From NCBI RefSeq assembly GCF_964204645.1, contig NC_134029.1, forward strand, positions 11,806,850-11,870,849: a stretch of DNA of 64,000 nt, in the 5' to 3' direction. The DNA is from Tubulanus polymorphus (lineage: Eukaryota > Animalia > Nemertea). The first letter of the stretch is position 1, and each line of letters opens with the position of its first letter. Both the position numbers and the translations under genes were made by a program. The notes beneath the pieces were generated by a model. It did no database searches, had not been told where the DNA came from, and saw nothing but the letters and a program-made list of their open reading frames with translations. Below, one piece after another: positions 11,679 through 37,473 of this stretch.

Positions 11679-11753
11679 AGTAATTGGAATAGTGGGCTTT
11701 CAAACCAGATTACGAGAGTACGAGACACCTCTCATCACCACTAGTAATTTTTT
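11679..11753 (+). repeat. Left TIR of Polinton 1
   Basis: agtaattggaatagtgggctttcaaaccagattacgagagtacgagacacctctcatcaccactagtaattttttt. Confidence 0.9.
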
Positions 11754-11763
11754 TCACTAATAA

Positions 11764-12075
11764 ATGGGAGATAGAAAAGCATTCTTAGCAACAATAAATA
11801 ACAGAATAAAACCAGCAAAAAAACAATTTGAAATAAAAAAGTTAGTAGATGTTACCAAAGAAATTGAACATAAAATATTGAGCTTAGAAAAGATAGAAAC
11901 TAAATATGGGGAGAAAGTATCAGCGAATTTAAGTTACTGTAATGTTAGTACATCGCGAAAATTTAAAGTATTTTTACCTGATAAATGGGTTGCATTGAGT
12001 ACAGAGGAATTAAAAGATTTAGAAGGATTTAAAATAATCTATCATGGAAAAATGAAGACGGTCATCATGATTTAG
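11764..12075 (+). CDS. Small Polinton protein, possibly an OB-fold ssDNA-binding protein
   Basis: Open 103-aa ORF with TAAATG start. KIETKYG...VFLPDKW pattern recalled from Polinton small proteins; the fold is inferred. Confidence 0.5.
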   Translation: MGDRKAFLATINNRIKPAKKQFEIKKLVDVTKEIEHKILSLEKIETKYGEKVSANLSYCNVSTSRKFKVFLPDKWVALSTEELKDLEGFKIIYHGKMKTVIMI

Positions 12076-12252
12076 AAATTGTTGATTAAAAAAATAAATT
12101 GATAATAAAAATAATGAGTATCTAGAATCCGAAATGACTTATCTGGACAATTCAATTGCTCCGCGTAGATAAACAAAAGTAGTGAGATGGTGCCGTACGG
12201 CACCCACATGGTGATATTCAATTATTTTTTTGCTTCTTTTTCTAAAATATTA

Positions 12253-12601
12253 ATCCATTTTTTTATTGTCCATTTTGGAATTTCAGAAGTATTTTGAATT
12301 TTAATAGCAGTAGTTTCAGAATTATTAATATCATAAATTTTATTTGATTTCTTATACCAACTACACCCAATCAAAATGAATACAATTACAAATCCAGTTG
12401 CAAAATATAGATATTCATCAAATATTCTATTATTAGAAGGAGTAGAAATAACAATATTTTCACCATTTTTTTAACATTTTTATTACTTATTTTTTCTTTT
12501 ACAGCTTTTTTATATTCTTGTGATTTAATTTCTAATTGCCGAGACCATTCAATTTGTTTCGGACTTCTCGGTTTTTTCTTCACTTCTTCCACCTTGCTCA
12601 T
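12253..12601 (-). pseudogene. Small membrane-anchored protein, homolog of 29927-30285
   Basis: KKPRSPKQIEWSRQL versus KKPRSEKQIKWAREL. Frameshifted; ends ...KMD*. Confidence 0.6.
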
Positions 12602-13090
12602 TTATTGTAGAAAAATATATTTCAATATTTGAAAATGTTATAACTCCAGTTGATAATAATGTCGTAAATCCACCTAATTGAAATGATAAATATCCAATCC
12701 ATTTATTTAATTCAGTCATAACTAAATAATCATTTTTTAAATCGGAATATAATCTATTTTCATCTTCAATTGGTAGTATATATTTAAATAATTTACTATA
12801 ACCTTTTACTACATTTTCTGATATCGCGTCATTAATTCTAGCTGTTCTCGCAGTTTCATTAATCTTAAATGATCTAATAATTTCATCTGATTTTTACATT
12901 TCCCAGATGCTATTAATATTTCTAATTGATGTTTGCAGTAAAGATAATATTCATAATTATTATTTGTTGTAACATAATTTAAAGCACCATCATCTGGAGT
13001 TAATTTTGTTTCTGTTATTCCTAAATCATCTAAAGTTTTTTCAATTGGAACATCACTATTTCTAGATTTTATTTTCTTTTCACCTCCCAT
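12602..13090 (-). pseudogene. Conserved Polinton hypothetical protein, homolog of 29359-29934
   Basis: IEKTLDDLGIT...EYYLYCKHQLEILIASGKC; downstream DLKNDYLVMTELNKWIGY after a frameshift/deletion. Confidence 0.7.
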
Positions 13091-13119
13091 TTATATAACA
13101 AACAAATTAGTTGTGTTGT

Positions 13120-13386
13120 TGCAACTAGAATTCAACTAGAATATAACTAGAATTCAACTAGATTAACAAGCTAGTTGAAATATTGTTGTTTTTATTTATT
13201 TCTTGTGGAATTTTATTTGATTTTTGCTACTAACAACTAGAATTCAACTAGAATGTAACTAAAAATATACTAGATTAACAAGCTAGTTGAAATATTGTTG
13301 TTATTTATTTATTTTTTTGTTTCAACTGCCAATAACAAAAATTTACTAGAATGTAACTAAAATATACTAGATTAACAAGCTAGATG
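13120..13386. repeat. Intergenic tandem repeats in Polinton 1
   Basis: Three copies of actagattaacaagctag plus multiple caactagaat units. Confidence 0.7.
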
Positions 13387-13389
13387 AAT

Positions 13390-13730
13390 TTAAATAAATT
13401 CATATTTAAATGGGTGTTGTGATCGAAATAGTAATTTTGATCGTTTATTATTTTTCAATTTATCCATATATTCGTTATGTAAATCATGTGGAATAATATC
13501 ATTTTCCTCAAGTGCATTTTTCATCGATTTCCTATCTTTATTGTGGAATAAAACTAAAAATCTAATGTTTTCTCTAAAATCTTTAACAATTGAATTATAT
13601 TTTTGATTTAAAACCCATGTTGTTATCCCAAAATGTCTCCCAGAGAAAGCTAAATAGCATAACTCACTTTCTATCACTTTTGAATCATGTAAATTTGCAC
13701 AATCATCTATGATAAAGAATGTATTAGATC

Positions 13731-13738
<8 letters not shown>
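13390..13738 (-). pseudogene. A32/FtsK-like packaging ATPase, C-terminal half only
   Basis: YKGSNTFFIIDDCANL (Walker B)...SGRHFGITTWVLNQKY. The Walker A half is missing at the (AT)n tract. Confidence 0.85.

Positions 13739-13796
<58 letters not shown>
13734..13796. repeat. (AT)n microsatellite
   Basis: Pure TA run. Confidence 0.95.
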
Positions 13797-13801
<5 letters not shown>

Positions 13802-14505
13802 ATTTTTTTCTTTTAATAGTTTTTGTTTTTAATACTTTTTCAATTTTATATTCTTGTTCTAGATTTTCAGTAGTTAAACTCAATTCTTCTTCATAAAAAT
13901 ACCCATCAACATCTTCACCATCTAAATCTTCTAATTTATAGACATATGGTTTTTTGTTATAACCTTTTTTATTTTATATATTTCCCTAGTAAAATTTCGA
14001 TCGTATCCTTTGTCAAATATCTTTTTATACTTGGAAATTCTAACATTTTGACCAACTTTAAATTTAGGTTCACCAAAATCATCTACAAGAAATGCCCCAT
14101 ACAAGTTATTCCAAACAATTTCAGCATTTTCAGGTTTTCTAGCATCAATAGGTTTCATTCCAATAGAAGAATGATAAGAATTATTATAACCTTCTATCAA
14201 TTTTGGTAAAACATCAATCCATTTAAAAGTATTATTTGCTGTAAAATATTTCCACATTCTTGTTCTTAATGTTCTATTAAATCGTTCAACAACTGCTGCT
14301 TTTTTATCCGATTTTGTTGAAAAATATTTAATATTATGATTATGTAAGAGTTCATGAACAAGTGAATTATCAAATTCTTTTCCATCATCAAATTGTATTT
14401 TTTCTGGTTTTAGTTTATCATCCGAAAGTAATTTTCTTAAAACATTTGATGTTTGTACAGCATCTTTTCTATAAAGTGGGAAGCTCCATACATAACGACT
14501 AAAAA

Positions 14506-17484
14506 TGAAAGGCTGAATCCAAGAACATGTCTATCGCACTTTTGAGCCCAAACGTCTACTTTTACTTAGTAGCCACTTGAGAACAATAAGCAATTAACGA
14601 TATCAGCTACTTTTCCAGTAGTATACATTTCAAAACAGTCACTCTGAAATAGTATTCCTTTCAATTCGGTTGGTTTTCTATAGTAACTGTTTCGAAGAGT
14701 CTACTATTGAAAAGTGACCATTTTAAAACATCTGGTTTCGATAGTGCACACTAGCAGTAGAGGTGACTGTAAAACCACCCGTCTGTCAACAGTGACTTTG
14801 TGATAGTAACTCTTACCGTAGCAGCTACTCTCAAAACACATCGTTTCTAAAAGTCAACTATTGAATAGTGACCATTTGAGATCACTTGCCAGATTCTCTG
14901 TTATAAATACACTGTAGCAACATATGCTTCAGATTTGCAGTGATACGTGACAATATAAACATACTGAAAACTCTACTCATGCTATAGTTTGGGGTATAAT
15001 TCTATTTTGAGTGACTCAGTTAAGATCTGAAGATATTGTAGATACTCTGTGAGGATGTGAAATGTGACGATCGATTCCCAACTCTTACCAATAAAAGTCG
15101 AAATTGGAGTTAAATTTGTTTCCAAATTGTCAATAGTTATGTAGTGTTAAAATAAATCGAAATTTCCTTCTTTTCATGGCAATATGATTTAATGCCGACA
15201 AATGCAGCTATTTTCAAGCATGGGTCTGCATTTATTTTTGGTATATTCTTAGATTAAAAGCGCAATCATAGATTCAGGCTATAACCTCTCATTATTGAAA
15301 TGGTGGTTTATTTTCAATGGGGGCCTGGATGTCTCTGCATCTTAAGATGTGCATTTCGGAGTGTTCGAATTTCCCTGAAATCATTGATCTTTTTTTAAAC
15401 AAAATATGCCATATCCGTGTGGATTTTAAACATTCTAAAGAAATCATCTAAATTGAGCCCATATTTGATCAAATCTTTTAAAAGAAACTTTGTATGGTAT
15501 TCAAGATTTCATTTGGATTACGGTAACGGCCTTTGGTGATCGTCACCGGGGTCATGAATGAAGAAATCCCGTAATAGAATTTTAAATATGATAAAATTTG
15601 TTAAAGGTGAAACCGCAACGTTTCGACTGTTGACTAACAGCAATCATCAGGTAGAACGTAGACATTTCTAGTGATAAGGGCTTTTAGTCAGATGGCTGTC
15701 AGTCAACAGCCGAAACGTTGTGGTTCAACTTTAATCAATTTCATGATACAAAATTCTGTTGCGGAATTTCTTCATTTATCTACAGTTAACACGGTTTAGA
15801 GTACTTTATTCGACTTCTTCGGGTCCTGTAGCCGTTAAGATCTAAAATTATTTACTTTTCGGCACAGAAGGGATATACAACCGTGTTGCTCCCTATGAGA
15901 GGGATTCCCTCTATATCTGCACCTTAAACCGGTACCTTTGTTGGTTCTAGCCCGCATTCGCTTCCAAATTCAAGTATTGGTAACGTTGGTTTACGATAAT
16001 TTGAGAAAAAGAGTTTAGTTGGAGGAAACTGATGATTATCTTATAATTCAGCCATTCATTGGTTCATCGATTCAGAAAAATAAAATAAAGTCTCATAGAG
16101 ATATTGCGGTGCTAAGTTTATTACTATTAAGAGGTAATTACTTTTGGTTCGTAGTCTTTTGGTGGTTAGTGCAGTTAGTTCATTCGTTCATCAATCACTG
16201 TCTAGTTAGCCTGTGTAATTGACCTGCTGACCGATAGCTGCTGCTGGGTTTTTGATAACCTATATAAACAATTTACTCAACTAAGTAGGAAAGTATGTGA
16301 AACTGAAATTACAGCCTCATTTCTTTCACTTCTTAAGCCAAACGAAGTATTCTCTATCAAATGAAATTGCTGATTTCAAAATTACGTGAACATCTCAACA
16401 CTCAACTCTTATACGCTAATCCTTTGATCTTTTATAATAAGTTGGTAATTTCATTTCAACCAAACCGTATAACTACGAAACAAGATTTTGATTAGGGTAT
16501 CACTTCTAGCAAGCGATAAAACGATTCAATATTCATCAATGAACAAGCAGAGAACAGCGTGACAAAGTGAACATCACATGGATTACTTAAAAATCGTTTG
16601 TATCGAAATAAACAATAAATTCAAGGTTAATTCTAAGTATTTTAGATACATTTTTTTCATAATTAATTTTATGAACATATGATTTTATTTGTATATTCCT
16701 CTCTCATATACCCTCAAAAACAAATTAAGCCTAAAAGACAAATTTATTTCTTGTCTTTCTTTTCTACAAAATCAAAGATTTATAATCGAAAATGTAAAAC
16801 AAAAATCTTAAAATTCTAAAGATTCTAGGACTGGCACTATATTTTAGTATTAATGGATTCAATCAATGATGATGATATATGAATCAATAGTTTTCCTATT
16901 GGATATTGCCATTTTGTTGAGCGTAATATAATTTAGGGGATTCTTGGCAACTCAAAAACTTTGATTTTCTATTCACAGAACTGTATTCAAAGCATACAGA
17001 GTTCTGTATATAAAGCATATGGGGTTTAATAGTACCTTTGAACCTGTCACGTATCACTGCAAATCTTTAACAGCTGCTGCTATTTTGAACAGGAAATTAC
17101 CTTGCCATCTCAAAATGGTCACTTTTCAATAGTTGACTTTTAGAAACGATGTGTTTTGAGAGTAGCTGCTGCGGTAAGAGTTACTATCACAAAGTCACTG
17201 TTTACAGGCGGGTGGTTTTACAGTGACCTCTACTGCTAGTGTGTACTATCGAAACCAGATGTTTTAAACTGTTCACTTTTCAATAGTGGACTCTTCGAAA
17301 CAGTTACTATAGAAAACCAACCGAATTGAATGGAATACTATTTCAGAGTGACTGTTTTGAAATGTATACTACTGGAAAAGTAGCCGATATCGTTAATTGC
17401 TTATTGTTCTCAAGTGGCTACTAAGTAAAAGTAGACGTTTGGGCTCAAAAGTGCGATAGGCATGTTCTTGGATTCAGCCTTTCA
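14506..17484. mobile_element. About 3-kb non-coding DNA transposon with about 375-bp TIRs, copy 1
   Basis: TGAAAGGCTGAATCC...GGATTCAGCCTTTCA ends. 2-bp AA duplication deduced from the integrase reading frame (DIFSRY). Confidence 0.85.
15613..15654 (-). ncRNA. Degenerate Penelope-type minimal hammerhead motif inside the TIR element
   Basis: cuac-CUGAUGA-uugcuguu-aguc-aacaguc-GAAAC-GUU-gcgg, within an inverted repeat at 15558-15775. Confidence 0.5.
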
Positions 17485-17862
17485 AATATCAATCATATTC
17501 AATATCCACCAATAATCATCATCATCTTTCTTAACATTTTTCATATCAATTAAATCTCCTTGCCACTGTTGATCTACATAACTTACCATAGTTTTACGAG
17601 TTTTATATTTTCTAACAATTTTTTTATGTGTTGTATATGTTGGCTGTTCTAACATAAAATCATTTATATCTTTATATTTAACTAAATTTTGTGGGATTAT
17701 CTTATCTAATTTATCTTGTTTTACTTGACGCCATATATTTTTGGTAGAAGAATAAGCAACCGAACTCTCAGGGTTGTAATATAAATTTCTTAAATATTGT
17801 TCTTTAGTATTAGGAGTTTTTTTACCACCCATTTATATATCGTTAATTTTAACTTAATATTT

Positions 17863-19111
17863 CTAATATTGAATACTATCTAATTGAGAATTTATAATAT
17901 TTAATTGCGCGTCAGATATAAAATAATTGTGCATTTTGAAATTTTTGATTCCTTTCTTCTTTTTCATGAATAATTGTATCCCATCTTTAGTATTCTGCAG
18001 CTTTTTTTCCAGAACCATGTAATGAATTATCCTCTGTTGTTCTTAAATCTAACCATAGTGCATATTTATTACCGGTATAATAATCAATTTGATTAATATT
18101 ACAATTTTCAGATGATTTTATTTTTTCATTCATAAAATGTTTTCTAATTTCTGGCCATTGATCTATCATTCTCATTCCTAGACAAAATATTTTATTTGCT
18201 ATACCTTCAATTGGTTTTTCTACTTTTGATATTTCAGGATTATAATAATCATCAACATTTATTGCGCCATTAGAATATGTTGCAATGGTAAAAAATATCA
18301 ATGCGCCGTTTATAGATCTTCTTGGGAAGTTAATATTCTCATTAATTACTTCATCATTTGCATTAATAGTTACAGTTTTAAATTTATCAATATAATCATA
18401 TAATAATGAAAATCCTTGATTGTATTGAGTTTGAATCATGCTAGCAATATGTTCATCAGTTACTGAATCATATTCTAAACATATATTCGATAATTTATAA
18501 CCCATATCTTTAACAACGCTAGATAAAACAATTTCATTAACGGGAGCAAATGTTATTTCGAATATAATATCTTCTTGAATTGCGTATTTATATAAAGGTG
18601 CATTATTATTTATCAATTCAAAATCTAATGGAATTTTATGTTTGCTTCCATAAATCTTTTTGATCAAATTATCTGCGGTACGAGTTACTATTGCGTCATT
18701 AGCTCCTGATCTTAATTTATTTTGGTTTTCTGATAGGATGATTTGAAATATAATATTATTTCTATTTTCTTTAGTTAACCATAAATCTTTGTAATGCATA
18801 AATAAATTATAATCATCTAATGAGAAAACTGTTTCCGGGCCAATCTTTTTAGTTAATTTTTTAATCAAATATCTTCCAACATTATCAACAACATAATTAT
18901 TATTATTACCATTTACATTTATATCAGCCGATAAATAAATACTATTTGGAACATAAAAAGTATTTTGATTTAATCTCGGGATTCTTACATATAAAGTTTC
19001 ATCAGGATTAATATTAGAAGGATTATGAGTAATTATATGATGAGATCTTTCTGCTTTAATAGCATTAGATATTCTTGAATTCTTAGAAGGATTGATATAA
19101 CTCCCACTCAT
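17863..19111 (-). pseudogene. Major capsid protein (double jelly-roll/hexon-like), frameshifted near the C-terminus
   Basis: 374-aa ORF with ITHNPSNI...LYVRIPRL, IPLDFEL, LSNICLEYD, ALWLDLRTTEDNSLHGSG. The tail (NTKDGIQL...DAQLNI...QY*) is in other frames and is intact in the paralog at 36856-37167. Confidence 0.8.
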
Positions 19112-19131
19112 TTATTTAACAAAAAAATTAA

Positions 19132-19446
19132 TTATTTATTTTGTATCATATTCACTAACCCAAAAATAATTGCACTTACAACTGTAATTAAAAATAAAAT
19201 AACATGTTCAGCAGCAAAGTTAAGAATATTCCCAGCAGATTTTAAAACAAAACCCACAATCGATGCAATAACACCAGGTAAAGCTGCAGCAGATTTTTTA
19301 GATAGTTCCCATAAATATTTTGCTAATTTTTTTAAACCATCCTTAACTTTATCTTGTATAGAATTATTATATTTTTATTAAAATCTATTGCAGGAATATT
19401 ATATTTAATTGATTTATTATATTGGAAAGCTTTTGGAAACCCCATT
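19132..19446 (-). pseudogene. Degenerate membrane protein fragment
   Basis: VKDGLKKLAKYLWELSKKSAAALPGVIASIVGFVLKSAGNILNFAAEHVILFLITVVSAIIF; early stop after the ATG. Confidence 0.5.
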
Positions 19447-19461
19447 TATATAATTAAAAAA

Positions 19462-19896
19462 TTAATAATTTATTAATTCTTTTAATAATTTATCTTGTTC
19501 TTCAACTGTAATATTACCATTTAAACTTATTATATAATCTAGTGTATTTTTTAATTTATTAATTTCTTTTATATTAGATTTAATTTTTTCTTTATTACTT
19601 TTTATATTTAATTTTGAACTCATACCAGTTAAAACACTTGATGATAATCCTAGCACGCCAATTGATATAGCTAAAGGTGTTAATGGACTGAATATTGCTA
19701 AAAATGTTATTACAGAACTAATTGTAACTGAACCACTGATAATAAAATAATATATAATTTTACTTTTTAAATATTTTTTCTTTTTTATCTTTAAGTCACT
19801 TTCAAATTCTAATATTTGTTTTTCTAAATATTTTTTTGATTTAGTTTTATTTATATCATGAGGAATAATATCAATATTATCAACTTTATCATCTAT
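19462..19896 (-). pseudogene. Two-TM coiled-coil protein; start codon apparently mutated ATG to ATA
   Basis: Frame is open from TAAATA-GATGAT at 19896 through IYFIISGSVTISSVITFLAIFSPLTPLAISIGVLGLSSSVLTG into ORF 19462-19656. Confidence 0.55.
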
Positions 19897-19915
19897 TTAT
19901 TTAGAAAAGAAATTA

Positions 19916-20338
19916 CTAATTAGTAAATTTATATGCTACAAATAAAACAATAACAGTTCCACCTAAAATCCATATTATTTCATATTCCTGTTGTTCTTTA
20001 CTTGGTGTATAATAATCTGATAATTTAGATTTGTATAGATGTAATTTTTCTTTATTGGTTACCGCGTTATATAAACTCATTGCATCATCGACTGATTGAA
20101 AATCTCTATGTGAAATCTTCTGATCATATAATTCTTTGTTAATATAATCCATGTAATTTTGTCTCTTTTCTCTATATTCTTCTGCTGCTTTATTGTATTT
20201 CTCTAATGCTAAGTTATGTCTTTTTTGTTCTGATAATGAACCACTTTTATCAATATGCTTAAATAAATAACCACCACATGTAAATGCTAAAGCGTTAACA
20301 ATTGCCGATCCTATAATAGTTATAATTGCAGAAGCCAT
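19916..20338 (-). CDS. Conserved Polinton small membrane/coiled-coil protein
   Basis: Open 140-aa ORF MASAIITIIGSAIVNALAF...EQKRHNLALEK...C-terminal TM; TAAATG start. Confidence 0.7.
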   Translation of the reverse strand: MASAIITIIGSAIVNALAFTCGGYLFKHIDKSGSLSEQKRHNLALEKYNKAAEEYREKRQNYMDYINKELYDQKISHRDFQSVDDAMSLYNAVTNKEKLHLYKSKLSDYYTPSKEQQEYEIIWILGGTVIVLFVAYKFTN

Positions 20339-20361
20339 TTATTTAGTAAAATAATTACGCA

Positions 20362-20583
20362 TTTATATAGGAAGAATATATTTTTGTTTTTCCAAATAAT
20401 CAATTGTTAAATTAGATAAAGTAACTGCTAACGTTAATTTTAAAATATCATTTATATCAAATCTATCAACATTAACACTTCCCATTTTAAATACTTTTTT
20501 AATACCATTGTATAACCAACAGTTCCCACTGATAATAATGCTCCATTATATAAACCAGTTATTATCCACTTATTATCACTCAT
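20362..20583 (-). pseudogene. Small hydrophobic protein with a frameshift in an A-run
   Basis: MSDNKWITGLYNGALLSVGTVGYTMVL / FKMGSVNVDRFDINDILKLTLAVTLSNLTIDYLENKKYILPI*; TAAATG start. Confidence 0.5.
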
Positions 20584-20940
20584 TTATTTATCAAAACAAT
20601 TACTATCTTCAAAATATGTATTTATCTTAGTTATAATTATTTCAACATTTATAGAATCATTAGTTTCATTTTCATATATTTCAGTTATTATTCTTTTAAT
20701 ATCATCAATGGTAAAATCTTCATCTAATTCATAAAATCTTAAAGATTCTCTAATTAAATTAGTAATCTTTTCTACATTTAAAGTTTCTTTATCTATTGTT
20801 TTTTCAAACTCAAATGTTGTTTCATTAGAAAATGCAATATTTTTAATATGTGTAATTACATCAGTAATGTTAAATTTCATTTCTTTCTCATGTTTAAAAT
20901 CAAATCCAAAACATATACTCGGTCCTACTGTTATATTCAT
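20584..20940 (-). CDS. Acidic hypothetical protein of the Polinton
   Basis: Open 118-aa ORF abutting its neighbours, preceded by taattttttcactataTAAATATG. Confidence 0.55.
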   Translation of the reverse strand: MNITVGPSICFGFDFKHEKEMKFNITDVITHIKNIAFSNETTFEFEKTIDKETLNVEKITNLIRESLRFYELDEDFTIDDIKRIITEIYENETNDSINVEIIITKINTYFEDSNCFDK

Positions 20941-20958
20941 ATTTATATAGTGAAAAAA

Positions 20959-21706
20959 TTACTCTTTACATCTTATAATTAATTCATAAATTACAGGAAA
21001 ATTATTTAAATCAATTAAATATCCATCATGATTTCTAAGTTCTAATCTAAAATTATTAAAATGAGGAATGCATGGTTTGAAATCACATTCTATTAAATTA
21101 TAATTTATTTGAGTTCCAAATTGTTTAACATTTTTAGTGGTAAAATATTTAGTATACTAGAACTACAAATTGTTTCTTTAGTTGCTTCGAATGTTTTTGT
21201 AGGATCGATTAAATTGCAATAAATATATAAGTGTGTAAAAGGTATTATATTTGAGATGCCTTCTGCGCTTCCAGTAACTGTAAGCGGTTTAATTCCTAAC
21301 ATTTTAGCCATTGGTTTGTTTACCATAAATTTATGTTGTTCATCTTTATTCTTATCATATTAGTACTATCAATTTTATTAAATTTAATTTCAAATACAGA
21401 AGTGCCCCCGATTTTCAACCGAGCTCTTCTATTAATTTCCTGCGCTAATGATTCTAAATTATATAATCCTGGTTTTAAAAATAGATGAAACCATTTATCT
21501 TTATTTCTCATATAAATCATAAACCCTCTATGTTCAAAAGTTTTATCCGATATATTACAAAAAGAATTACATAAACTTACATTTACTAATTTTAAATCAA
21601 CACAATTCTTAAATTCTCTATCTAATTGTACTAGTAAATTATGTGATTTAGAATTTAACAGTTTTCTAGAATCAACAAATATTCTATATTCTTTTACTTC
21701 ACCCAT
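20959..21706 (-). pseudogene. Minor capsid protein (penton, single jelly-roll), two frameshifts
   Basis: IFVDSR...LVNVSLCNSFCNI...PGLYNLESLAQEIN / HLYIYCNLI / FRLELRNHDGYLIDLNNFPVIYELII, a typical penton motif order. Confidence 0.7.
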
Positions 21707-21775
21707 TTATTTATAGCACAAAAAAATTACCTCTCATCACTAAAAATTAATTTTAATAGAATTTTTCCTTAATAA

Positions 21776-22996: not shown

Positions 22997-23055
22997 TTAA
23001 ATAAAAATGAAGAAACCAGTAGTGATTTCGAGTATGATGATATTGATATTATGTT

Positions 23056-26000: not shown

Positions 26001-28126
26001 GTTTAAAATCTTATTTTCTTACATTTGTACCATTCATAGCATTATATTCTTCTATTTCTTGATTAATTGCGCCCAATTTTCCCGATAATTGTTTTATAAA
26101 TAGATGGGTATCATAGCCCGATAAATTATGAAATAATTTTGGTACGAAATTAACTTTCTTAGCTTGTAAATTACAATCTTCATGAGCAGCTCCACGATAT
26201 TTTGAATTTAAATGATCATGATCTCTAACTTTTTCATCAAATGAATAAAAACGTTTTTCACAATAACAACAATGAATTGCATAATTAAAATCAATTTCAT
26301 CTTCTTTTGTCATAACTATTCTTTTATTTTTGTTTAATAATTTTGCAAAATCACTTTCTATTTCAATTATTTTGTTACAAAAATCATTAAACTCCATCTT
26401 CACCTCTAAGAGAAATATATTGACTTTCATATAATTCAGGATAATTTGATTTTATGTAAATTCCATAAGCAGCAGCTCTTTGATGAACTTTTTTAATTGT
26501 GTTTATAATTGGTGGATCTTGAATTATGTCTTCATTTAATTCATTTCCTTTATCCATTGATTTTAAAAATTGCTTTTTATTGTATATTTCTTTTCTATAT
26601 TGATCAGTTAATTCTTTATTCAACGATTCAAAATCCCCATAAATTACAAATGGAACAATATTTTTAAATTTATGATTAGTAAATTTCAACTTACAATCTT
26701 TTTTTGTTGGCATTATCAATTTACAAAAAATCTTTATTATCACATAATTCTTTATGTTTTAATAATGTATTCTCAGTCATAAATTTAGATAAACATTTTC
26801 TAAATAGATAAATTTTATGATGATGATCACTTTCTGTTCTAAAGAATAAATCAATTTGTTTTAACCACATATAATGTTCATTTTCATCTTTTTTGTAATG
26901 TAACAAATCTATAGCATTTTCATCATCATCATATTCTGTTAGATATAAAGCTTCTAATGTATAATCTTTAATATTTACACCTTTTGTCTTTGGTAATTGC
27001 ATTAATTCAAATACATTTATTTTTAAATTATTAACTTTTTCTATTTTAGGAATCATCTTTATAGTTACTGGATATTGATCAATTTTATATAATGTTTCAC
27101 ATTTCCGGTAATTTGTTATTCTAAATCTATGCGTAATATTTTCTGTTGGGTGTAAGCAACTAATAATTGACCATAGCAAACATGTATTATCTTCATTTTG
27201 AACATTTATTACTGCTTTTGTTGTAAATGGTAATTTGATATAACTTGATGCTTTAATATCCTTTTCTGTTGTAAAGTTTGAATCATTTTTAAACATTGTT
27301 TTACTTTTTGATGTTTTATTCATTTTTGTATTATAAACATTTAAATCTAAAAATATAATTTCATTCAATGTTAAACCAGAACCCTCAAAATATCTTTCTT
27401 CAATATGACGTTTAAATTCTTAAAATATTTTTTCTAACTTTTCGTTTATTTGTGTTTTTGAAATTATTTCTTCAGAGAGTGTTTGAATATTATAATCCAT
27501 TTTCTCTTCTGACTTTAAAAAACTTACTTTCCCAGAGATACTTATACAGAGATATTAATTAACATCTGTTATCAAATCTAGTATTTTTCCATTATTTCAT
27601 TAAATTTACTATAATCTTTTATTGTTGTACCTTTAAAAAATCTAAATATAATGGCTGCAGGACCAATTTTACTATGTAATGTTTCTAAAATTTCAATTGT
27701 ATCTTTTATTTCTAGTGAATCGATATAATTTCTAACATTTTCCATGTAAGGTTTATTTGAAATGGATTTAGTTTTTGAAGTTGGTTTTTTTACTTGTTGA
27801 GGTTTATCATCGAAATAATCTATTCCTAAAACATTATTACTCAAATTTTGATGGTGTTTTTGTGATTTGATATGTCTTTTATAATTCCTTTTTACTATAA
27901 ATTCATTACAAACTTCACATTTTATTTCATCCACATTCATATCATCTAATCGTTCTTTTCTTTCATTGGAATTTTCTGAAGTTTCAAAATCTATAACATT
28001 TTTTATATGATTTACGGTTTTTTCATGGTGTGTTTTATTAGATTTATCTATGGATTTTTTACAATATGGTCAATAATATTGGTTTTTAGCATCAATTTGT
28101 TCTGTATGTTGTTCACTCTCTCCCAT
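23056..28126 (-). pseudogene. Protein-primed family B DNA polymerase (pPolB) with N-terminal Zn fingers, an endonuclease VII-like insert and an intein; several stops and frameshifts
   Basis: ExoI IYGDFES, VRDHDH...YRGAAHEDCNL, ExoII FHNLSGYD, ExoIII YLKSDV, motif A DANNLYGWAM, motif B KLMNNSFYG*, motif C YFD|TDA, C-terminal GKFKDE, KMYSY, DKRYIL...TLPYGY. Confidence 0.95.
23512..24577 (-). mobile_element. Intein with LAGLIDADG homing endonuclease at the Pol-c site of pPolB
   Basis: Block A SVTADTPKLL, block B VDVTEDHSLI, LAGLIDADG motifs FIKGFFMGDG and FFIGFYAADG, block F YVYDLST, terminal N followed by +1 Thr. One frameshift at the homopolymer near 23875. Confidence 0.92.
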
Positions 28127-28133
28127 TTATAAG

Positions 28134-28202
28134 AAAAAAAATTACTTGTGGTGATGAGAGGTGTCTCGTACTCAGGTCTGAAAGCCCACTTTTCCAATTA
28201 CT
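28134..28202 (-). repeat. Right TIR of Polinton 1
   Basis: Reverse complement agtaattggaaaagtgggctttcagacctgagtacgagacacctctcatcaccacaagtaattttttt. Confidence 0.9.
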
Positions 28203-28354
28203 GACACGACTGTCACAACCGACCTACGCGCTCTTGCGACTGGCAGAAACTAGTTGCACACAATCGTATCGCAACCGACTTGCACCGAAACTTGCGATGC
28301 AACGCGAGGATCGCATCGCGTCACAAGGCCGACCTACGTCCGGCTTTAAGTTAC

Positions 28355-28930
28355 TGCGGAGCCCCAGAAATATCTTTTTTTTCGTTCAAAAAACCTTTCG
28401 CTTGAAAATTCTTTCACAACAAAATCTATTTCGTTCCAACCAATAATATTCTTTTCGATTGAACAAATTTCAAAAATCGTTTGAACAAAGTTGAACAAAC
28501 TTTTTATTTCCAAACGAAAGGTTTTTCGTTCGAACAATCGTTGATCGAACAGAATCGTATTAATTTGAACAGAATTTTCTTGTCAGAACATTAAGTTTTT
28601 CGTAACAAGTATATTGTAAAAAGTTTTTTCTCCGAACCAAAAGTATTAAGTATTTTGTTCAATCGAACAGAATTGTTTTCATTCACAACATTCGTTCGAA
28701 AAAAATTGTTTTCGCTCAACCAAATTTTTTGCCGGGACAAAAAGTTTTTCATTTCAACAATAACATAGGTTTTCATTCGAACACATTTTTTTGTCAGAAT
28801 GAAGAAAGATTTGGTTCAAAAAAGCGTATTATTCAACCAAACTGAATTGTTTTCACTCGAATACGATTTTCTTGTCGGAACATTAAGGTTTTTGGTCGAA
28901 CAGCGTGTTAAGTTCGTTTTGGAAATTTTC
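28355..28930. repeat. Degenerate short-unit tandem array (ttcgaaca-like)
   Basis: Recurrent tcgaaca / gttcga / ttttgtcagaac motifs. Confidence 0.5.
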
Positions 28931-29358
28931 TCGGTCTGGTATATTTTGGATTACTGTGTATGTAATTTGTCAGGACATTAAACAGAAGACGACTTAGGAT
29001 ACTACCGTTCCGTTGATTTCGGCTACAAGCTTTCGTTCAGAGATAACTGCTGAGCCATTTGGGCGACCTATCATTGATACTGTTTCCTAATAGCCTGTTA
29101 AGTTAGTAATGGCTGATGTTGTGCCTTATCAAATGCTGTGTCGAAATCCACTGTTGAACAGGATTCTAAGACTGTGCAGAAAACCCGTTATCGCTGCTTT
29201 GCAGCTATATTGAAATCTATTATTTCTTTTCAAAGGAGAATACATTATATTTTGAATAGATTTGAATAAAAAAACTATAACTTCAACTAGCTAGTATTTA
29301 AAATTCTTAACTTTAACTAGCTAGAATACTTATATTTTTTTCGCTTTTTCTAATATAA

Positions 29359-29934
29359 ATGTCAAAGAAATCTGATAAAAATAATACCGATATTGAAAAG
29401 ACAATTGATGATTTAGGTATTACAGATAATAATGATACAGTTATTTCTAATTGTGCTCAAAATAATTATAATATTGATTTTGAATACTATTTAACATGTA
29501 AGCACCATCTTGAGTTACTAATTGCTAGCGGCAAATGTAATGAGCTTATTGGCAAAATTATAACTTTTCAAGAACTAGATGCCATGAAACCAGATAAAGT
29601 AATAAAACATTTCAAAATATATGAAGAAGCTAGATTAGCTAGAATAAATGACTCTATAAGTGATGGAATAGTTAAATGTTACTCTAAATTATGTAACCGG
29701 ATTATACCAATTGATGATGAAAATAAATTATATACTGATTTAAAAAATGATTACTTAGTTATGACAGAACTACAGAAATGGGTCGGGTACGCTTCATTTC
29801 AATTAGGAGGAATAATGACATTGATTTCTACTGGCGTAATAACATTTTCTAACATCAGACCTATAGAATATAAAGATAAAAGTAAATCAGAAGATATTGA
29901 ATTAGAACAAAAATTAACTAAAATAAATGAGTGA
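29359..29934 (+). CDS. Conserved Polinton hypothetical protein
   Basis: Open 191-aa ORF, TAAATG start, homolog at 12602-13090. Confidence 0.75.
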   Translation: MSKKSDKNNTDIEKTIDDLGITDNNDTVISNCAQNNYNIDFEYYLTCKHHLELLIASGKCNELIGKIITFQELDAMKPDKVIKHFKIYEEARLARINDSISDGIVKCYSKLCNRIIPIDDENKLYTDLKNDYLVMTELQKWVGYASFQLGGIMTLISTGVITFSNIRPIEYKDKSKSEDIELEQKLTKINE

Positions 29935-30285
29935 TGATATTAAGAAGAAACCTAGATCCGAAAAACAAATTAAATGGGCTAGGGAATTAGGTAAAAGATC
30001 TTCAGAATTAAAAAGAGCTAAGAAAAAGAAATTAAATGATATAAATGAATCACAGAAATTATCTGATATTAATTCAAATGATAATCCATCTGATTATTCT
30101 AATGCTGGAAGTAATAATAAATTATATATAACAATTGGATTAGTAGCAGTTATTATATTCTCTGGTGTAATATATAAATTTGAATTTAATAACAATAATG
30201 ATTCCGATGATAAACCTATTATACCAGAAAATAAGTCAAATGATAAAACCATTGAAAATAAACCAAGATTATTATTAATGGATAA
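29927..30285 (+). CDS. Small membrane-anchored protein (stop lost, reads through into the integrase)
   Basis: KKPRSEKQIKWARELG...LYITIGLVAVIIFSGVIY...LLMD; the homolog ends MD*. Confidence 0.55.
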
Positions 30286-30292
30286 AAATAAG

Positions 30293-31375
30293 ATGAAAAT
30301 GGAACAATATTTAAGAGATTTATATTATAACCCAGAGAGTGAAGTATCATATTCAAGTGTTTCAGAATTATGGGATAAAATTAAATCTGATAAAGAAAAT
30401 ATAAAATATAGTGAATTAAGATTATGGTTAAAAAATCAACCAACATATCAAATCCATAAGAAAATGGATAAAAATTATTTAACGAGAAAAGTTATGGTTT
30501 CATATATCGATCAACAATGGCAAGCAGATTTAATAGACATGAAGAACTTAGAGGAACACAACAAAGGATATTTCTGGATATTAAATGTTATAGATATATT
30601 CAGTAGATACGCATGGAGTATTCCAATCAAAAATAAAACTGGTATAGAAATTACTAATGCCTTTAAATCAATATTTAAAGAAGCTATTCCAGGTAAGATA
30701 CAATTCGATGAAGGTAAGGAATTCTATAATAAACATTTTAAAAGATTATTATCTGATAACAGTATAGAATATTTTTCAACGCATTCAGATAAAAAAGCAT
30801 CTATTACGGAAAGGTTTAATAAAACATTGAAATCTAGAATGTGGAAATATTTTACAGCTAATGAAACATATGAATATATCGATGTGTTAGATTATTTAGT
30901 GAAAGGTTATTATAATTCTTAACATAGTTCTATAAATATGAAACCTATACAAGCTAGAAAAGAAGATAATTCAGAAATAGTTTGGAATAATTTATATGGA
31001 GCATTTGTTACACATGATTTCGGAGAACCTAAATTTAAGATAGGACAACATGTGAGAATATCTAAATATAGAAAAACGTTATATAAAGGTAATACAAATT
31101 TTAGTGAAGAAATATTCAAAATTAAAAAGATAATACTTACTAAACCATTTGTTTATAAATTAGAAGATTTAAAAGATGAAGAAATATTAGGTTATTTTTA
31201 TGAACAAGAATTATCACTTGTACCAAATCCAGATGAAATAGAATACAAAATACAAAAAGTATTAAAAACAAAAACTCTTAAAGGAAAAAAGTATTCTTTA
31301 GTGAAATATAAAGGGTATGATGATAAATTTAATGAATGGATTTTATCTAGTAAAATTAAAAGAATAAATGAATGA
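30293..31375 (+). pseudogene. rve integrase with C-terminal chromodomain; one in-frame stop at 30920
   Basis: WQADLIDM, IDIFSRYAW, QFDEGKEF, ERFNKTLK, EYKIQKVLKTK...LVKYKGYDDKFNEWI. Confidence 0.9.
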
Positions 31376-31976
31376 AGATTTATTTATATTTGAACCGCAT
31401 AATATGTTAGTTACTGGCGTAACCAACTGTGGTAAAACACATTTCATATTAGATTTATTGGAAACTATTTATAAGAATCATTTTGATAATATAATATTAT
31501 TCTGCCCTACTAATGAAATGAATAAAACATATAATAGAGATATAGTTAAGATAAAAAAGTTTATTATATTAGATCCTAAAACAGTGAAAGAAAATTTAGA
31601 TAATTGTATTAAAATAGCAATCGATATTTATAAAGGACCAAATACATTATTTATTATAGATGATTGTGCTAATTTACATGATTCAAAAATTAGAGCAAGT
31701 GAGTTATGCTATTTAGCTTTCTCTGGGAGACATTTTGGGATAACAACATGGGTTTTAAATCAAAAATATAATTCAATTGTTAAAGATTTTAGAGAAAACA
31801 TTAAATTTTTAGTTTTATTCTACAATAAAGAAAGAAAAATGCAACAATCATTGGAAGAAAATCAAATTATACCTACTGAATTACATGATGAATATATGAA
31901 TAAATTAAAAAGTAATAAAGGTTCAAAATTATTACTGAGGCTTCAATATCCATATGAATATAAATTTATAAAATAA
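31368..31976 (+). CDS. A32/FtsK-like genome packaging ATPase
   Basis: Open 202-aa ORF: Walker A GVTNCGKT, Walker B FIIDD, GRH and hhhhQ motifs. Confidence 0.9.
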   Translation: MNEDLFIFEPHNMLVTGVTNCGKTHFILDLLETIYKNHFDNIILFCPTNEMNKTYNRDIVKIKKFIILDPKTVKENLDNCIKIAIDIYKGPNTLFIIDDCANLHDSKIRASELCYLAFSGRHFGITTWVLNQKYNSIVKDFRENIKFLVLFYNKERKMQQSLEENQIIPTELHDEYMNKLKSNKGSKLLLRLQYPYEYKFIK

Positions 31977-32104
31977 CTATTTATATATCTAAGTACTAGA
32001 CATATGAGTAAGAAACCAAGATTCTTGCTAAGAAAGTAAGAAAGTAAGAATTCTTGGATTCTTACTCATACGTCTAGTATATAGATATATAAATTAGTTT
32101 TTAT
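31975..32104. repeat. About 125-bp imperfect palindrome right after the ATPase stop; a second copy is at 32450-32470 plus 35612-35708
   Basis: tatatctaagtactagacatatgagtaaga...tcttactcatacgtctagtatatagatata. Confidence 0.75.
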
Positions 32105-32183
32105 ACAAATTATTAAATGAAATATATAATAATGAATAAATTATATATTAAAACTATGTTTATAATTTATGTTTTCACAGGGG

Positions 32184-32307
<124 letters not shown>

Positions 32308-32470
32308 ATTTATAATAATTACGAATATAAATTATTAAATGAAATATATAAAAATGAATAAATTATATGTTTTCACTCAATAGAAATAAAAATAGATTAT
32401 GTTATAACTATTTCTATACTTCAATTAATAATTTATATTTTTAATTTTTATAAAAACTAATTTATATATG

Positions 32471-35400
32471 TGAAAGGCTGAATCCAAAAACATGTCTATC
32501 GCACTTTTGAGCCCAAACGTCTACTTTTACTTAGTAGCCACTTGAGATCAATAAGCAATTAACGATATCGGCTACTTTTCCAGTAGTATACATTTCAAAA
32601 CAGTCACTCTGGAATAGTATTCCTTTCAATTCGGTTGGTTTTCTATAGTGGCTGTTTCGAAGAGTCTACTATTGAAAAGTGACCATTTTGAAACATCTGG
32701 TTTTGATAGTGCACACTAGCAGTAGAGATGACTGTAAAACCACCTGCCTGTTAACAGTGACTTAGTGATAGTAACTCCTACCATAGCAGCTACTCTCAAA
32801 ACACATCGTTTCTAAAAGTCAACTATTGTAAAGTGACCATTTTGAGATGGCGTGGTTATTTCCTGTTCAAAATAACCACATCTGTTAAAGATTTGCAGTG
32901 ATACGTGACAGGTTCAAAGGTACTGTTAAACCCTATATGCTTTGTATTCAGAACTCTGTATGATTTGAATACAGTTCTGTGAATAGAAAATCAAAGTTTC
33001 TCAGATGCTAAGAATCCCCTAAATTATATTACGCTCAACAAAATGGAAAACTATTCATTCATATAACATCATCATGGATTAAATCCATTAATACTAAAAT
33101 ATGGTGCCAGTCCTAGAATTCTTAGAATTTTAAGATTTTTGTTTTACATTTGCGATTATAAAACATTCTGGTAGACAAAAAAATAAATTTGTCTATTAGG
33201 CTTAATTTGTTTTTAAGGGTATATGAGAGAGGAATATACAAATAAAATCATATGTTCAAAAAAATGAATTACGAAAAAAATGTATCTAAAATACTTAGAA
33301 TTAACCTTGAATTTATTGTTTATTTCGAAACAAACGATTTTTAAGTAATCCATGTGATGTTCACTTTGTCACGCTGTTCTCTGCTCGTTCGTTAATGAAT
33401 ATTGAATCGTTTTATCGCTCGCAAGAAGTGATACCATAATCAAAATCTTATTTCGTAGTAATACAGTTTGGTTGATTTGAAATTACCAACTTATTATAAA
33501 AGATCAAACAATTAGCATATAAAAGTGTAGTGTTGAGATGTTCACGTAATTTTGAAGTCAGCAATTTCATTTGATAGAGAAAACTTCTTTTGGCTTAAGA
33601 TGTGAAAGAAATGCGATAGGCTGTAATTCTAGTTTCACATACTTTCCTACTTTGTTAAGTAAATTGTTTATATAGGTTATCAAAAACCCAGCAGCAGCTA
33701 TCGGTCAGCAGGTCAATTACACTGGCTAACTAGACAGTGATTGATGAACGAATGAACAAACTGCATTGGCCACCAAAAGACCACAAACCAGCACCGCAAT
33801 ATCTCTATGAAACTTTATTTCAAGGTGCCAATATAATAACATGCCAAAATGTACGGTGTTTGAACTTCGCTGAATCGATGAACCAATGAATGGCTGAATT
33901 ATAAGATAACTATCAGTTTTCTCCTACTAAACTCTTGTTCTCAAATTATCGTAAACCAACGTTACCAATACTTGAATTTGGAAGTGAATGCGGGCTAGAA
34001 CCAACAAAGGTACCGGTTTAAGGTGCAGATATACAGGGAATCCCTCTCATAGCGACCAACACGGTTGTATATCCCTTCTTTGCCGATTAGTAAATAATTT
34101 TCGATCTAAACGACTACAGGACCCGAAGAAGTCGAATAAAATACTCTAAACCTTGTTAACTGTAGATAAATGAAATTCCACAATAGAATTTTGTATCATG
34201 AAATTTATTATAGTTAAACCACAACGTTTCAGCTGTTGACTGACAGCCATCTGACTAAAAGCCCTTATCTCTAAGAATGTCTACATTCCACCTGATGATG
34301 GCTGTTAGCTGTAGATAAATGAAGAAATTCCACAATTGAATTTTGTATCATGAAATTTATTATAGTTAAACCACAACGTTTCAGCTGTTGACTGACAGCC
34401 ATCTGACTAAAAGCCCTTATCACTAGGAATGTCTACATTCCACCTGATGATGGCTGTTAGTCTACAGTCAAAACGTTGCGGTTTCACCTTAACAAATTTT
34501 ATCATATTTAAGATTATATTACGGGATTTCTTCATTCATGACCCCAGGGACGATCACCAAAGGCCGTTACCGTAATCCAAATGAAATCTTGAATACCATA
34601 CAAAGTTTCTTCTATTAAATTCGATCAAATATGGGCACAATTTGATGATTTCTTTAGAATGTTAAAAGTCCACATGGATAAAGCATGTTTGAAAAAAATC
34701 AATGATTTCGCGAAATTAGAATTCAGGGAAATTCGAACACTCCGAAATGCACATCTTAATTTAAGATGCAAAGACGTCCAGGCCCCCGTTGAAAATAAAC
34801 CACCATTTCAATAATGAGAGGTTAGCCTGAATTTATGATTGCGCTTTTAATCTAAGAATTTAAATCAAAAATTAATGCAGACCTATGCTTGAAAATAGCT
34901 GCATTTGTTCAAATTGAATTCTTTATTCAATTATATCGCCATGAAAAGAAGGAAATTTTGATTTATCTTAAAAACTACATAACTATTGACAATTTGTAAA
35001 CAAATTTAACTCCAATCTCGACTTTTATTGGTTAGAGCTGGGAATCGCTCATTAAATTTCACATCCTCAAAGAGTATCTACAATATCTTCTTATCTCAGC
35101 TGAGTCACTCTAAATAGAACTATACCCCAAACTATAGCGTGAGTAGAGTTTTCCGTATATTTATATTGTCACGTATCACTGCAAATCTGAAGCATATGTT
35201 GCTACAGTGTATTTATAACAGGGAATCTGGCAAGCGATCTCAAAATGGTCACTTTTCAATAGTTGACTTTTAGAAACGATGTGTTTTGAGAGTAGCTGCT
35301 ATGGTAGGAGTTACTATCACAAAGTCACTGTTAACGGGCGGGTGGTTTTACAGTCACCTCAACTGCTAGTGTGGACTATCAAAACCAGATGTTTCAAAAT

Positions 35401-35609
35401 GGTCACTTTTCAATAGTAGACTCTTCGAAACAGCTACTATAGAAAACCAATTGAAAGGAATACTATCCCAGAGTGACTGTTTTGAAATGTATACTACTGG
35501 AAAAGTAGCCGATATCGTTAATTGCTTATTGTTCTCAAGTGGCTACTAAGTAAAAGTAGACGTTTGGGCTCAAAAGTGGGATAGACATGTTCTTGGATTC
35601 AGCCTTTCA
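32471..35609. mobile_element. About 3.1-kb non-coding long-TIR DNA transposon, copy 2 (opposite orientation)
   Basis: Same ends as 14506-17484, TG duplicated on both sides, interior is the reverse complement of copy 1, with an about 150-bp tandem duplication at 34160-34460. Confidence 0.85.
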
Positions 35610-35715
35610 TGTATGTACTAGACGTATGAGTAAGAAAGTAAGAATTCTTACTTTCTTGGATTCTTGGATTCTTACGTACGTCTAGTACATAGATATAAAA
35701 ATAGTTTTACAATAA

Positions 35716-36823
35716 TCATTGTAATTTTGTTTCTAATAAATTTATAAAGTCATCTTGGTTTATATCGAATTCATAATAATGCTTAGGTAGATTTATTAAT
35801 TTTAGTTGAGCCATCAGATAATAATAATTAGTATGTATCTTACCTTCTTTTTTTAATTTTTCAAAGTATTCATCAAAATCAAAATCAAAATGATATCCAA
35901 AATTTTTTATTAGATAACTTAAATCTATTTTTCTCGAATACAATAATTTATATATTTGCCTAGGATTATCTTCTGCATAAGCTAATAATTTATCAAATAA
36001 CAACTTATAGAATATATAATATTGTTTAGTTTTAGGATCAAAATATTGATATATTTCTTTGGGTTATTTAACAATGGTATCATACTTTCATTTTTATAAA
36101 CATTAATTAGATGTAATTTTGATTTATAATGAGTATTTTCATCAACAGGTTCAATTTTCTTATTATAATATTGACACGTTTTATTTCTTTCTATTACTTC
36201 AAATTTCTTTTCATGTTCTTCTAACTCCCTTTCATTTTCTATATGTCCCTGAGATTTTTTATGCTTAGAAAAATTACTTTTAGAAATATCTAAATTACAA
36301 ACATTACAATGTTTTTAAGAATCATCATTTGTTTCATTATCATTAGTTTCAATTGTATCAAATTATCCGTTATATTATCTATGGTATCATTAGTTTCAAT
36401 TGTATTAACATTATCTATGATATTATTATTCTTTTCTTTTTCTACATGTTTCTTTGATTTCTTATGGGTTGCCCAATTTTTATATGATATATATTTCTTA
36501 CATACGTCACAATATTTTTCATTTGTCTTTTTGGTTTTGATATCAAGTTCAATCTTATCATCATTCGATGTAGAAGGTATAACATTATCTTCTATTTTTG
36601 TTTCAATATTATCTTCTATTTTAGATTCAATATTATCTTCTTTTTTAGGTTCAATATTATCTTCTATTTTAGGTTCAATATTATCTTCTTTTTTACTTAT
36701 TCTATATTTGAATTGATTAAAGTATTCTCCAAAATACTTACTATATTCATAAGGTATTATATAATATATATCTGATATCATTTCACTTGGACTTTGTATT
36801 TCATATAACTTACCTGCCTCCAT
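35716..36823 (-). pseudogene. Zinc-finger protein with 8-aa tandem repeats, frameshifted
   Basis: TAAATG start, (KIEDNIEP)-type repeats, YCDVCKKYISYKNWATHKKSKKH and a second CNVC finger in another frame; C-terminal ORF 35716-36003. Confidence 0.55.
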
Positions 36824-36855
36824 TTATTATATAAATTTTTATTAAAACTAAAATT

Positions 36856-37292: not shown

Positions 37293-37473
37293 ATACTGAC
37301 TGCTACTGACTGGCCAGTAGCAGTACTATATCTGACATTTATGAAAAGAACAATATAATTAGTATCTGGTATGTTGTCACCCTGATATAAGTCACATATT
37401 TCATAATCATATATATCTACAATTTCATATTGAATGGTTCATAATATTTCATATCTCTTACTATATGAAATGC

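Follow-up and report, generated by a model that had tools for sequence, protein, structure and literature searches.

Gene content of two decayed Polintons

The 64,000 nucleotides of the nemertean Tubulanus polymorphus analysed here (RefSeq assembly GCF_964204645.1, contig NC_134029.1, positions 11,806,850 to 11,870,849 of the forward strand; hereafter the window, with coordinates counted from its first letter) carry two decayed copies of Polinton (Maverick) elements, A at about 11490–28350 and B at 29359–37302, whose genes begin at the hexamer TAAATG at 15 of 19 starts mapped by homology. One clade of group-2-type Polintons has conserved TAAATG, with AWWTTT upstream of it, as its start signal. 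Element A has inverted ends, an rve integrase (E 3e-8), the remnant of an A32 ATPase, a putative capsid gene, a SLATT-like gene and a protein-primed-type DNA polymerase B (pPolB) with an intein, a gene content that fits group 2 Maverick-Polintons (10.64898/2026.06.19.733378). Relatives were gathered with a capsid profile search, which supplied 2 loci from the genome collection and, out of 199 metagenome loci, the best 80; the closest of them, L001, is intact and also carries a deoxynucleoside kinase gene (10343–10981, reverse strand; Pfam dNK E 1.7e-31) that starts at TAAATG and is absent from the window.

The terminal inverted repeats of element A pair 11679–11774 with 28202–28116 at 83% over 96 nt and extend patchily to about 280 nt. 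A 6-bp target-site duplication is a Polinton/Maverick feature, and the outer ends of element A are so strongly decayed that it could not be placed. The left repeat (11488–11766, forward) is clear over its inner ~95 nt, holds a ACCTCTCATCAC box at 11727–11738 and includes a promoter-like first-gene start, from which the 103-amino-acid terminal gene runs at 11764–12075 (forward; TAAATG at 11761–11766; 70% to L001). On the reverse strand follow a small basic-region gene (12294–12604, frameshifted, TAAATG start 12601), a conserved Polinton gene of family 1 (12549–13093, frameshifted, TAAATG start 13090), the 3' half of the A32-like packaging ATPase (13390–13731, its start and 5' part lost) and the rve integrase-chromodomain gene (13797–17835, TAAATG start 17832), which is frameshifted and interrupted by a ~3-kb inverted-repeat insertion at 14506–17484. 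The putative major capsid gene, of a ~415-amino-acid family, lies at 17866–19114 (reverse; frameshift near the 3' end, TAAATG start 19111). This family is conserved, has 275 matches and usually adjoins the ATPase; it has no sequence match in Pfam, NCBIfam or the PDB, and the capsid assignment is putative, drawn from size, conservation and ATPase synteny.

Still on the reverse strand are the remnants of two conserved ~450-amino-acid genes fused by a large deletion (19135–19448, TAAATG start 19445), a SLATT-like gene with two transmembrane segments (19462–19899, start codon damaged in a TAAATA context, 76% to L001 from residue 1), a conserved 140-amino-acid gene (19916–20341, TAAATG start 20338), a conserved ~75-amino-acid gene (20363–20586, frameshifted, TAAATG start 20583, its TAA being also the upstream stop), a 118-amino-acid gene (20584–20945, TAAATATG start at 20940) and a gene in three frames (20959–21709, TAAATG start 21706) that we take, from its size and resemblance, to be a putative minor capsid (penton) gene. 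A 69-nt divergent intergenic region (21707–21775) with two opposed TAAATG starts and a ACCTCTCATCAC box at 21729–21740 separates the latter from a broken zinc-finger/VLTF3-like gene (21773–23047, forward; TAAATG start 21776; VLTF3-like domain about 22400–22993). The block from the putative penton gene to the small basic gene (12294–21709) is inverted relative to L001, while the flanking terminal and VLTF3-like genes are unchanged. The pPolB gene (23056–28129, reverse; TAAATG start 28126) has many breaks; its fragments match the PolB of relative L026 at 26–39% over residues 93–1154 of 1176, and L026 PolB in turn matches DNA_pol_B_2 (E 7e-14). Its intein (about 23512–24577, reverse), which has endonuclease-like motifs, sits inside the polymerase catalytic YxD-TD motif, the site that giant-virus PolB inteins also occupy. 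The right terminal repeat (28124–28356, reverse) contains a third ACCTCTCATCAC box, at 28151–28162.

Element B is a fragment of a related subfamily with the gene order of relatives L002 and L005; terminal inverted repeats were not found for this fragment. Its forward strand bears a family-1 gene (29356–29934, TAAATG start 29359), a small basic-region gene (29924–30290, TAAATG start 29927), an integrase-chromodomain gene with one internal stop (30293–31375, TAAGATG start context) and an A32-like ATPase in an open frame (31365–31976, Pox_A32 E 7.6e-12, TAAATG start 31368), and its reverse strand a broken zinc-finger-type gene of family 35 (35719–36826, TAAATG start 36823) and the 3' third of a putative capsid gene (36856–37302). 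Both Polinton copies carry an insertion of the same non-coding element, ~3 kb long and bounded by inverted ends of ~450 nt (14506–17484 and 32463–35617). At 9558–10190 (forward) a gene for an HNH-type nuclease, which also belongs to this clade, stands isolated; it has an AAAATG start and has retained the upstream element. The flanks are animal DNA, since an exon at 59169–59597 (reverse) encodes GOLPH3 (E 8e-68 with the human protein vs E 2e-20 with yeast Vps74). Frameshifts, stops and deletions, besides the shared 3-kb insertion, mark both copies as decayed, and they are probably inert. For these copies, a working version of the antiviral provirophage-like system that the initial annotation had entertained is unsupported, because the polymerase, integrase, capsid and VLTF3-like genes are broken.

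TAAATG as the start signal of one clade

The initial annotation had listed exact TAAATG at 14 gene starts, TAAATATG at 20940 and TAAATA at 19896, and a scan of both strands recovered every one of these with matching coordinates and strand (14 of 14 for TAAATG). A fifteenth exact copy, absent from that list, stands at 19445 on the reverse strand, at the start of a gene remnant. For most starts the alignment to an orthologue begins at residue 1 or close to it, in L001, L002 or P0139 (a full-length relative of the VLTF3-like protein); that of the polymerase at 28126 was placed by its position beside the terminal repeat, without N-terminal homology. The four starts that have no TAAATG are 19896, 20940, that of the second integrase at 30293 and that of the isolated HNH gene at 9558. 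By chance the motif is much rarer, being carried by 46 of the 979 other ATGs in 11700–37400 (4.7%; binomial p ~4e-17), and host flanks have it at 39 of 1384 ATGs. The TAATTTTTT tract that, with a short spacer, the annotation had described before many starts is real: a weight matrix for positions −20 to −4, trained on related loci only and with the window excluded, gives higher scores to the 15 true starts than to the 46 TAAATG sites that occur by chance (Mann-Whitney p 5e-7). TAA doubles as the stop of the upstream gene at 1 of the 15 starts (20583), and at 5 of the 15 no gene precedes the start on its strand.

In a quick maximum-likelihood capsid tree of 68 rows, in which 15 of 83 were left out for a capsid open reading frame (ORF) below 250 amino acids and which has support from the Shimodaira-Hasegawa-like approximate likelihood ratio test (SH-aLRT) only, the clade of the window received an SH-aLRT of 99, and TAAATG marks the capsid start in 14 of 15 members vs 0 of 53 outside. 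ORF counts took in all non-overlapping ORFs of at least 70 amino acids and a clade of 16 loci, L042 and L072 having been added by identity; here TAAATG begins 60 of 71 ORFs vs 90 of 2316 non-start ATGs. The 66 other loci have it at 9 of 452 starts, and the 10 AT-rich ones among them at 2 of 64, which together with the 46 of 979 remaining ATGs of 11700–37400 leads us to reject an artefact of AT composition. When only full-length ORFs of seven shared families are counted, the figures are 21 of 23 inside the clade and 0 of 132 outside, so that the survey across other Maverick/Polinton families makes TAAATG the trait of one capsid clade; starts outside it have a purine at −3 in 111 of 132 cases. 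L001 has the motif at 15 of 16 starts, its sole miss being an internal fragment, and TAAATG persists in loci of 40–44% GC (L007, L008). Structural, integration, replication and regulatory genes use it alike.

With near-duplicates removed, TAAATG stands at 54 of 63 clade starts (86%), and TAAAT falls within −8 to +2 at 57 of 63. Among the nine misses, three have a displaced ATG with TAAAT still standing immediately ahead of it, four come from internal fragments or from an ORF that is doubtful, one reads TAAAAT and one is motif-free. The 54 starts take the form AATAAATG in 23 cases and TATAAATG in 21. The AWWTTT element lies at a fixed distance, 12–18 nt upstream of the start, and the clade profile shows A at −18 in 76%, T rising from −15 with a peak at −15 to −10, and T at −12 in 89%. 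The gene upstream overlaps the motif with its stop at 1 of the 54 starts, is separated by a gap at 27 and overlaps at 6; at 9 the contig shows no gene upstream. The other 11 are divergent starts whose two ATGs lie 19–72 nt apart, eight of them at 19–30 nt. A TATA box for RNA polymerase II (Pol II) was considered and rejected, since a Pol II start site must lie downstream of its TATA box and none would fit where TATAAA stands directly on the ATG. Separately, an ACCTC(TCATCAC) box is found 36–47 nt upstream of the terminal, VLTF3-like and polymerase genes (window 11727, 21729 and 28151), and its ACCTC core is equally placed in L001 (86 and 11013), 39–41 nt upstream of two orthologues; it may be a second promoter class.

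The VLTF3-like gene and candidate readers of the signal

The broken gene at 21776–23047, whose VLTF3-like character had escaped the initial annotation, has two full-length relatives, P0139 (49%) and P0140 (36%), the first of which is almost identical at its N-terminus to the cut last ORF of L001. Residues 72–262 of the ORF at 22187 match Pox_VLTF3 clusters in Atlas (27 of 30 matches) with a score of 0.96, on a scale that is uncalibrated for protein parts. Folded as a single sequence the protein gave a poor model (predicted local distance difference test, pLDDT, 45.7) and a weak structure search; from a three-row alignment the pLDDT was 74.6, with 12 BFVD matches at E <0.001, mostly VLTF3. Those named VLTF3 include cowpox (E 9.7e-6, template-modeling score 0.61) and two entomopoxviruses, the top row being labelled exonuclease, and the best solved structure is yeast TFIIB (7o4i_M) at a middling Z of 6.6 (root-mean-square deviation 3.8, 94 aligned). 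Searched against 5018 ORFs, a profile of the VLTF3-like domain matches the canonical VLTF3 of a giant virus (E 7.7e-5), and word-indexed homologue searches with the domain returned nothing. By these comparisons the product is VLTF3-like, combining a predicted zinc ribbon and a TFIIB/cyclin-like helical domain with a C-terminal VLTF3 motif. The presence of VLTF3 in some Polintons has already been published (PMC11131425; PMC8502044). No RNA polymerase gene was detected among the Pfam-scanned ORFs, 37 from the window and 18 from clade loci, none of these being a complete clade genome.

A sister Polinton clade has another start code, a bipartite motif of AWWTT about 12–18 nt before TATA(G), itself 1–19 nt before the ATG (for example L059 at 4388, 4621 and 8392; L067 at 5910, 6149 and 8205; also L068), with TATA at 20 of 26 starts vs 2 expected. 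It has its own VLTF3 (L059:5082–5576 and L067:6543–7049), with PF04947 at E 4e-5 and 6e-4, short of the cut-off, and its resemblance to the window protein is marginal (BLASTP E 0.064, profile comparison E 0.024). A broader VLTF3 profile found none in 18 other Polinton loci of at least 8 kb, none of them proven complete. Family 22 of a far clade was considered as a further VLTF3 and is not VLTF3-like.

Vaccinia late promoters are described as a T-containing core, a 5–7 bp spacer and TAAAT(G/A) with no 5' untranslated region (UTR) (PMC5294985), and the clade signal, an initiator on the start codon with a T-rich core at a fixed spacer, matches this description at the level of sequence. The TAAA bases are contacted directly by the viral polymerase in the vaccinia intermediate complex (PMC12917281), and TAAATG marks about 30 genes in salmon gill poxvirus (PMC4542343). 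With moderate confidence, we favor the reading that TAAATG and AWWTTT form a late-type promoter which a large DNA virus, infecting together with the element, would transcribe with its RNA polymerase, and that the active ancestors of these elements would have been virophage-like parasites. The helper polymerase would transcribe active elements from such compact late-type promoters, beginning on the AAA of TAAATG and by slippage adding a 5' poly(A) leader that would substitute for a 5' UTR. The VLTF3-like protein of the element might serve as a TFIIB-type adaptor that recruits or redirects the helper polymerase.

Several results weigh against this reading. Neither the window domain nor P0139 nor P0140 matches Pfam PF04947, and the ACCTC box could be an early element read by the host. 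The poxvirus early terminator TTTTTNT is scarce in clade coding strands (21 observed vs 48 expected), and this depletion is not specific, as T-runs are depleted in the outgroups too and A-runs in the clade. Mriyaviruses, which have no RNA polymerase, retain VLTF2/3 and are believed to rely on the nucleus (PMC11253617). The genome of a helper did not turn up, and relatives of the clade were absent from viral_contigs in searches with the capsid, a capsid profile, a VLTF3 profile and the ATPase. Finally, further large viruses carry TAAATG too. Twelve loci (L207–L218), fetched via an exonuclease homologue after a motif scan of viral_contigs (at least 121 loci), carry the Pfam domains WIV_dom, MSV199, RNase III, NIF, XRN and PCNA, and from these domains we take them to be iridovirus-like; TAAATG stands at 60 of their 141 de-duplicated starts vs 166 of 5565 other ATGs, and at 7 of 26 starts in the giant-virus bin G001. 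The motif is for that reason not diagnostic of poxviruses, and of the poxvirus-late-like promoter proposed in the initial annotation the large-virus late character is supported by the anatomy and the VLTF3-like factor, while its poxvirus specificity is not, and the NCLDV-type polymerase inferred there is a candidate reader. Other giant-virus bin loci have TAAATG at 11 of 67 starts. Many starts in G001 (L204–L206 and L125) also combine (T/A)AAATG with an ATTTT about 12–20 nt upstream, a bipartite pattern that occurs 35 times vs 10 in a reversed control.

The helper would probably be a pox-like virus or an invertebrate iridovirus. A pox-like helper is favored by the T-tract, by the TATAAATG forms and by poxvirus VLTF3 ranking high among the fold matches: iridovirus-like loci use AATAAATG at 55 of 60 starts vs 23 of 54 in the clade and TATAAATG at 2 of 60 vs 21 of 54, and T at −12 is found at 48 of 54 clade starts vs 28 of 60, so that we lean tentatively toward the pox-like side on the T-tract and the TATAAATG variants. 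No poxvirus-family match occurred among the 29 scanned of 40 motif-started ORFs in L083–L203. An iridovirus helper is favored by a shared SLATT-like family and by iridovirus-like particles, which have been reported from marine invertebrates (PMC5923455); promoter reviews, as far as their accessible text goes, do not list TAAATG for invertebrate iridoviruses (PMC5923455 and PMC8400408 among them). The SLATT-like Polinton family in question has homologues in four iridovirus-like loci at E about 1e-25 (L207:5656, L208:5430 and L212:6327, reverse; L215:6178, forward). It occurs in Polintons of the clade as well as in ones beyond it, is distinct from the SLATT gene of the window itself and suggests gene exchange between Polintons and the iridovirus-like group. 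In viral_contigs an intein search gave no usable locus, and the L001 deoxynucleoside kinase had one match, at 37%, in a locus with TAAATG at 1 of 17 starts.

The strongest competitor, which we consider unlikely, is an autonomous nuclear cascade that needs no helper, in which Pol II would read the ACCTC-box genes and the element's VLTF3-like protein would then steer Pol II to TAAATG. Integration does occur in the nucleus, the VLTF3-like gene has a TFIIB-type fold (at the middling Z given above), the ACCTC box precedes the polymerase, VLTF3-like and terminal genes at 36–47 nt in the window and two orthologues at 39–41 nt in L001, VLTF3 and a strong start motif co-occur in two clades with none in the 18 other loci of at least 8 kb (none proven complete), and mriyaviruses keep VLTF2/3 without an RNA polymerase (PMC11253617). 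Against such a cascade, the VLTF3-like, polymerase and integrase genes themselves begin at TAAATG, divergent starts 19–30 nt apart leave nearly no 5' UTR, no VLTF2- or TBP-like partner was found, and in poxviruses it is the virus's own polymerase that reads TAAA (PMC12917281).

It is improbable, in our estimate, that the motif is a relic inherited from a helper-dependent ancestor and left unused as later members spread solely as nuclear transposons. The integrated and decayed state of the window copies and the failure to find a helper would suit a relic, but 86% of starts retain the motif although capsids are 48–73% identical to that of the window and intergenic DNA has otherwise diverged, and it also marks clade-specific accessory genes (dNK, HNH); retention across diverged members and accessory genes needs continued selection. 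Least probable of all is a translation-level signal (an in-frame TAA guard, termination-reinitiation coupling, or AATAAA as the polyadenylation signal of the upstream gene), for which the compact genome, a TAA in frame with the ATG and the 23 of 54 AATAAATG forms speak, and which is opposed by the upstream stop coinciding in 1 of 54 starts, the 11 divergent starts, the 21 TATAAATG starts that are not AATAAA, a stop that is always TAA bar one TGA (L033), TAAAT retained where the ATG is displaced, a T at −3 opposite to the purine of 111 of 132 outgroup starts, and the fixed-distance upstream element. Stop-start coupling and polyadenylation-signal overlap are rejected as general causes on the first three of these counts, and the 1 of 15 starts in the window at which TAA is the upstream stop tells the same story.

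Returning to the large-virus late promoter, a bolder extension, which we put forward tentatively and regard as rather doubtful, would make an entire branch of animal Polintons virophages of invertebrate large DNA viruses, in which each subclade has its own VLTF3-like factor and a helper-matched promoter code, TAAATG being pox- or iridovirus-like and AWWTT...TATA asfarvirus-like (the asfarvirus late motif is described as TATATA at the start site). Start motifs in animal genomes would then predict unseen viruses, and a virophage-type antiviral system among animals.

Comparison with known systems

If helper dependence is true, the reach of virophage biology goes beyond protists to the germ lines of animals, and the start motif indicates which virus to seek; a clade-wide 30-nt promoter code with an element-encoded late factor makes the helper reading directly testable. 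No published report of a TAAATG start motif in Polintons was found in a literature search covering open texts, outside subscription journals and supplements. Like group 2 Maverick-Polintons and adintoviruses, as described in the main texts of PMC11131425, PMC8502044 and 10.64898/2026.06.19.733378, the clade has pPolB, an rve integrase, an A32 ATPase, a SLATT gene and terminal repeats, with no protease found; those main texts contain no promoter analysis, and group 2 relatives outside the clade differ in lacking TAAATG and in having starts with a purine at −3.

Polinton-like viruses (PLVs) that occur with entomopoxviruses have been proposed as poxvirus hyperparasites (Barth et al. 2024, PMC11296320) and are, like the present clade, animal-associated Polinton-like elements. 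According to the main text of that report they encode a protease of adenovirus type and came from occlusion bodies; the same main text makes no mention of promoter, motif, TAAAT, upstream or transcription. The clade shares with poxvirus intermediate and late promoters, and with the TAAAN of yeast virus-like elements, a TAAAT initiator at or near the ATG and an AT-rich upstream core (PMC5294985, PMC12917281, PMC6211774), and the yeast elements are described as linear with terminal repeats, as are Polintons (PMC6211774). Poxviruses and the yeast elements, in the accounts cited, encode an RNA polymerase; none was found in this clade, where the motif marks all gene classes. The iridovirus-like loci resemble the clade in TAAATG starts and in the shared SLATT-like family, and differ in being almost always AATAAATG with weaker upstream T.

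The closest parallels are described among virophages and a PLV. Mavirus promoters match the late motif of CroV (10.1101/068312), and promoter mimicry is also reported for Sputnik and Guarani with mimivirus and for Gezel-14T with PgV (PMC6510173, 10.1101/2022.07.28.501842). Like these, as far as those sources describe them, the clade consists of small integrating elements of pPolB/rve type without an RNA polymerase and with one large-virus-type motif before most genes. Its TAAATG sits on the start codon, whereas the virophage and PLV motifs, TCTA or AAAATTGA, lie upstream, and unlike mavirus, Sputnik, Guarani and Gezel-14T the clade has an animal host, a capsid lineage of Polinton type, its own VLTF3-like gene and a helper dependence that is putative.

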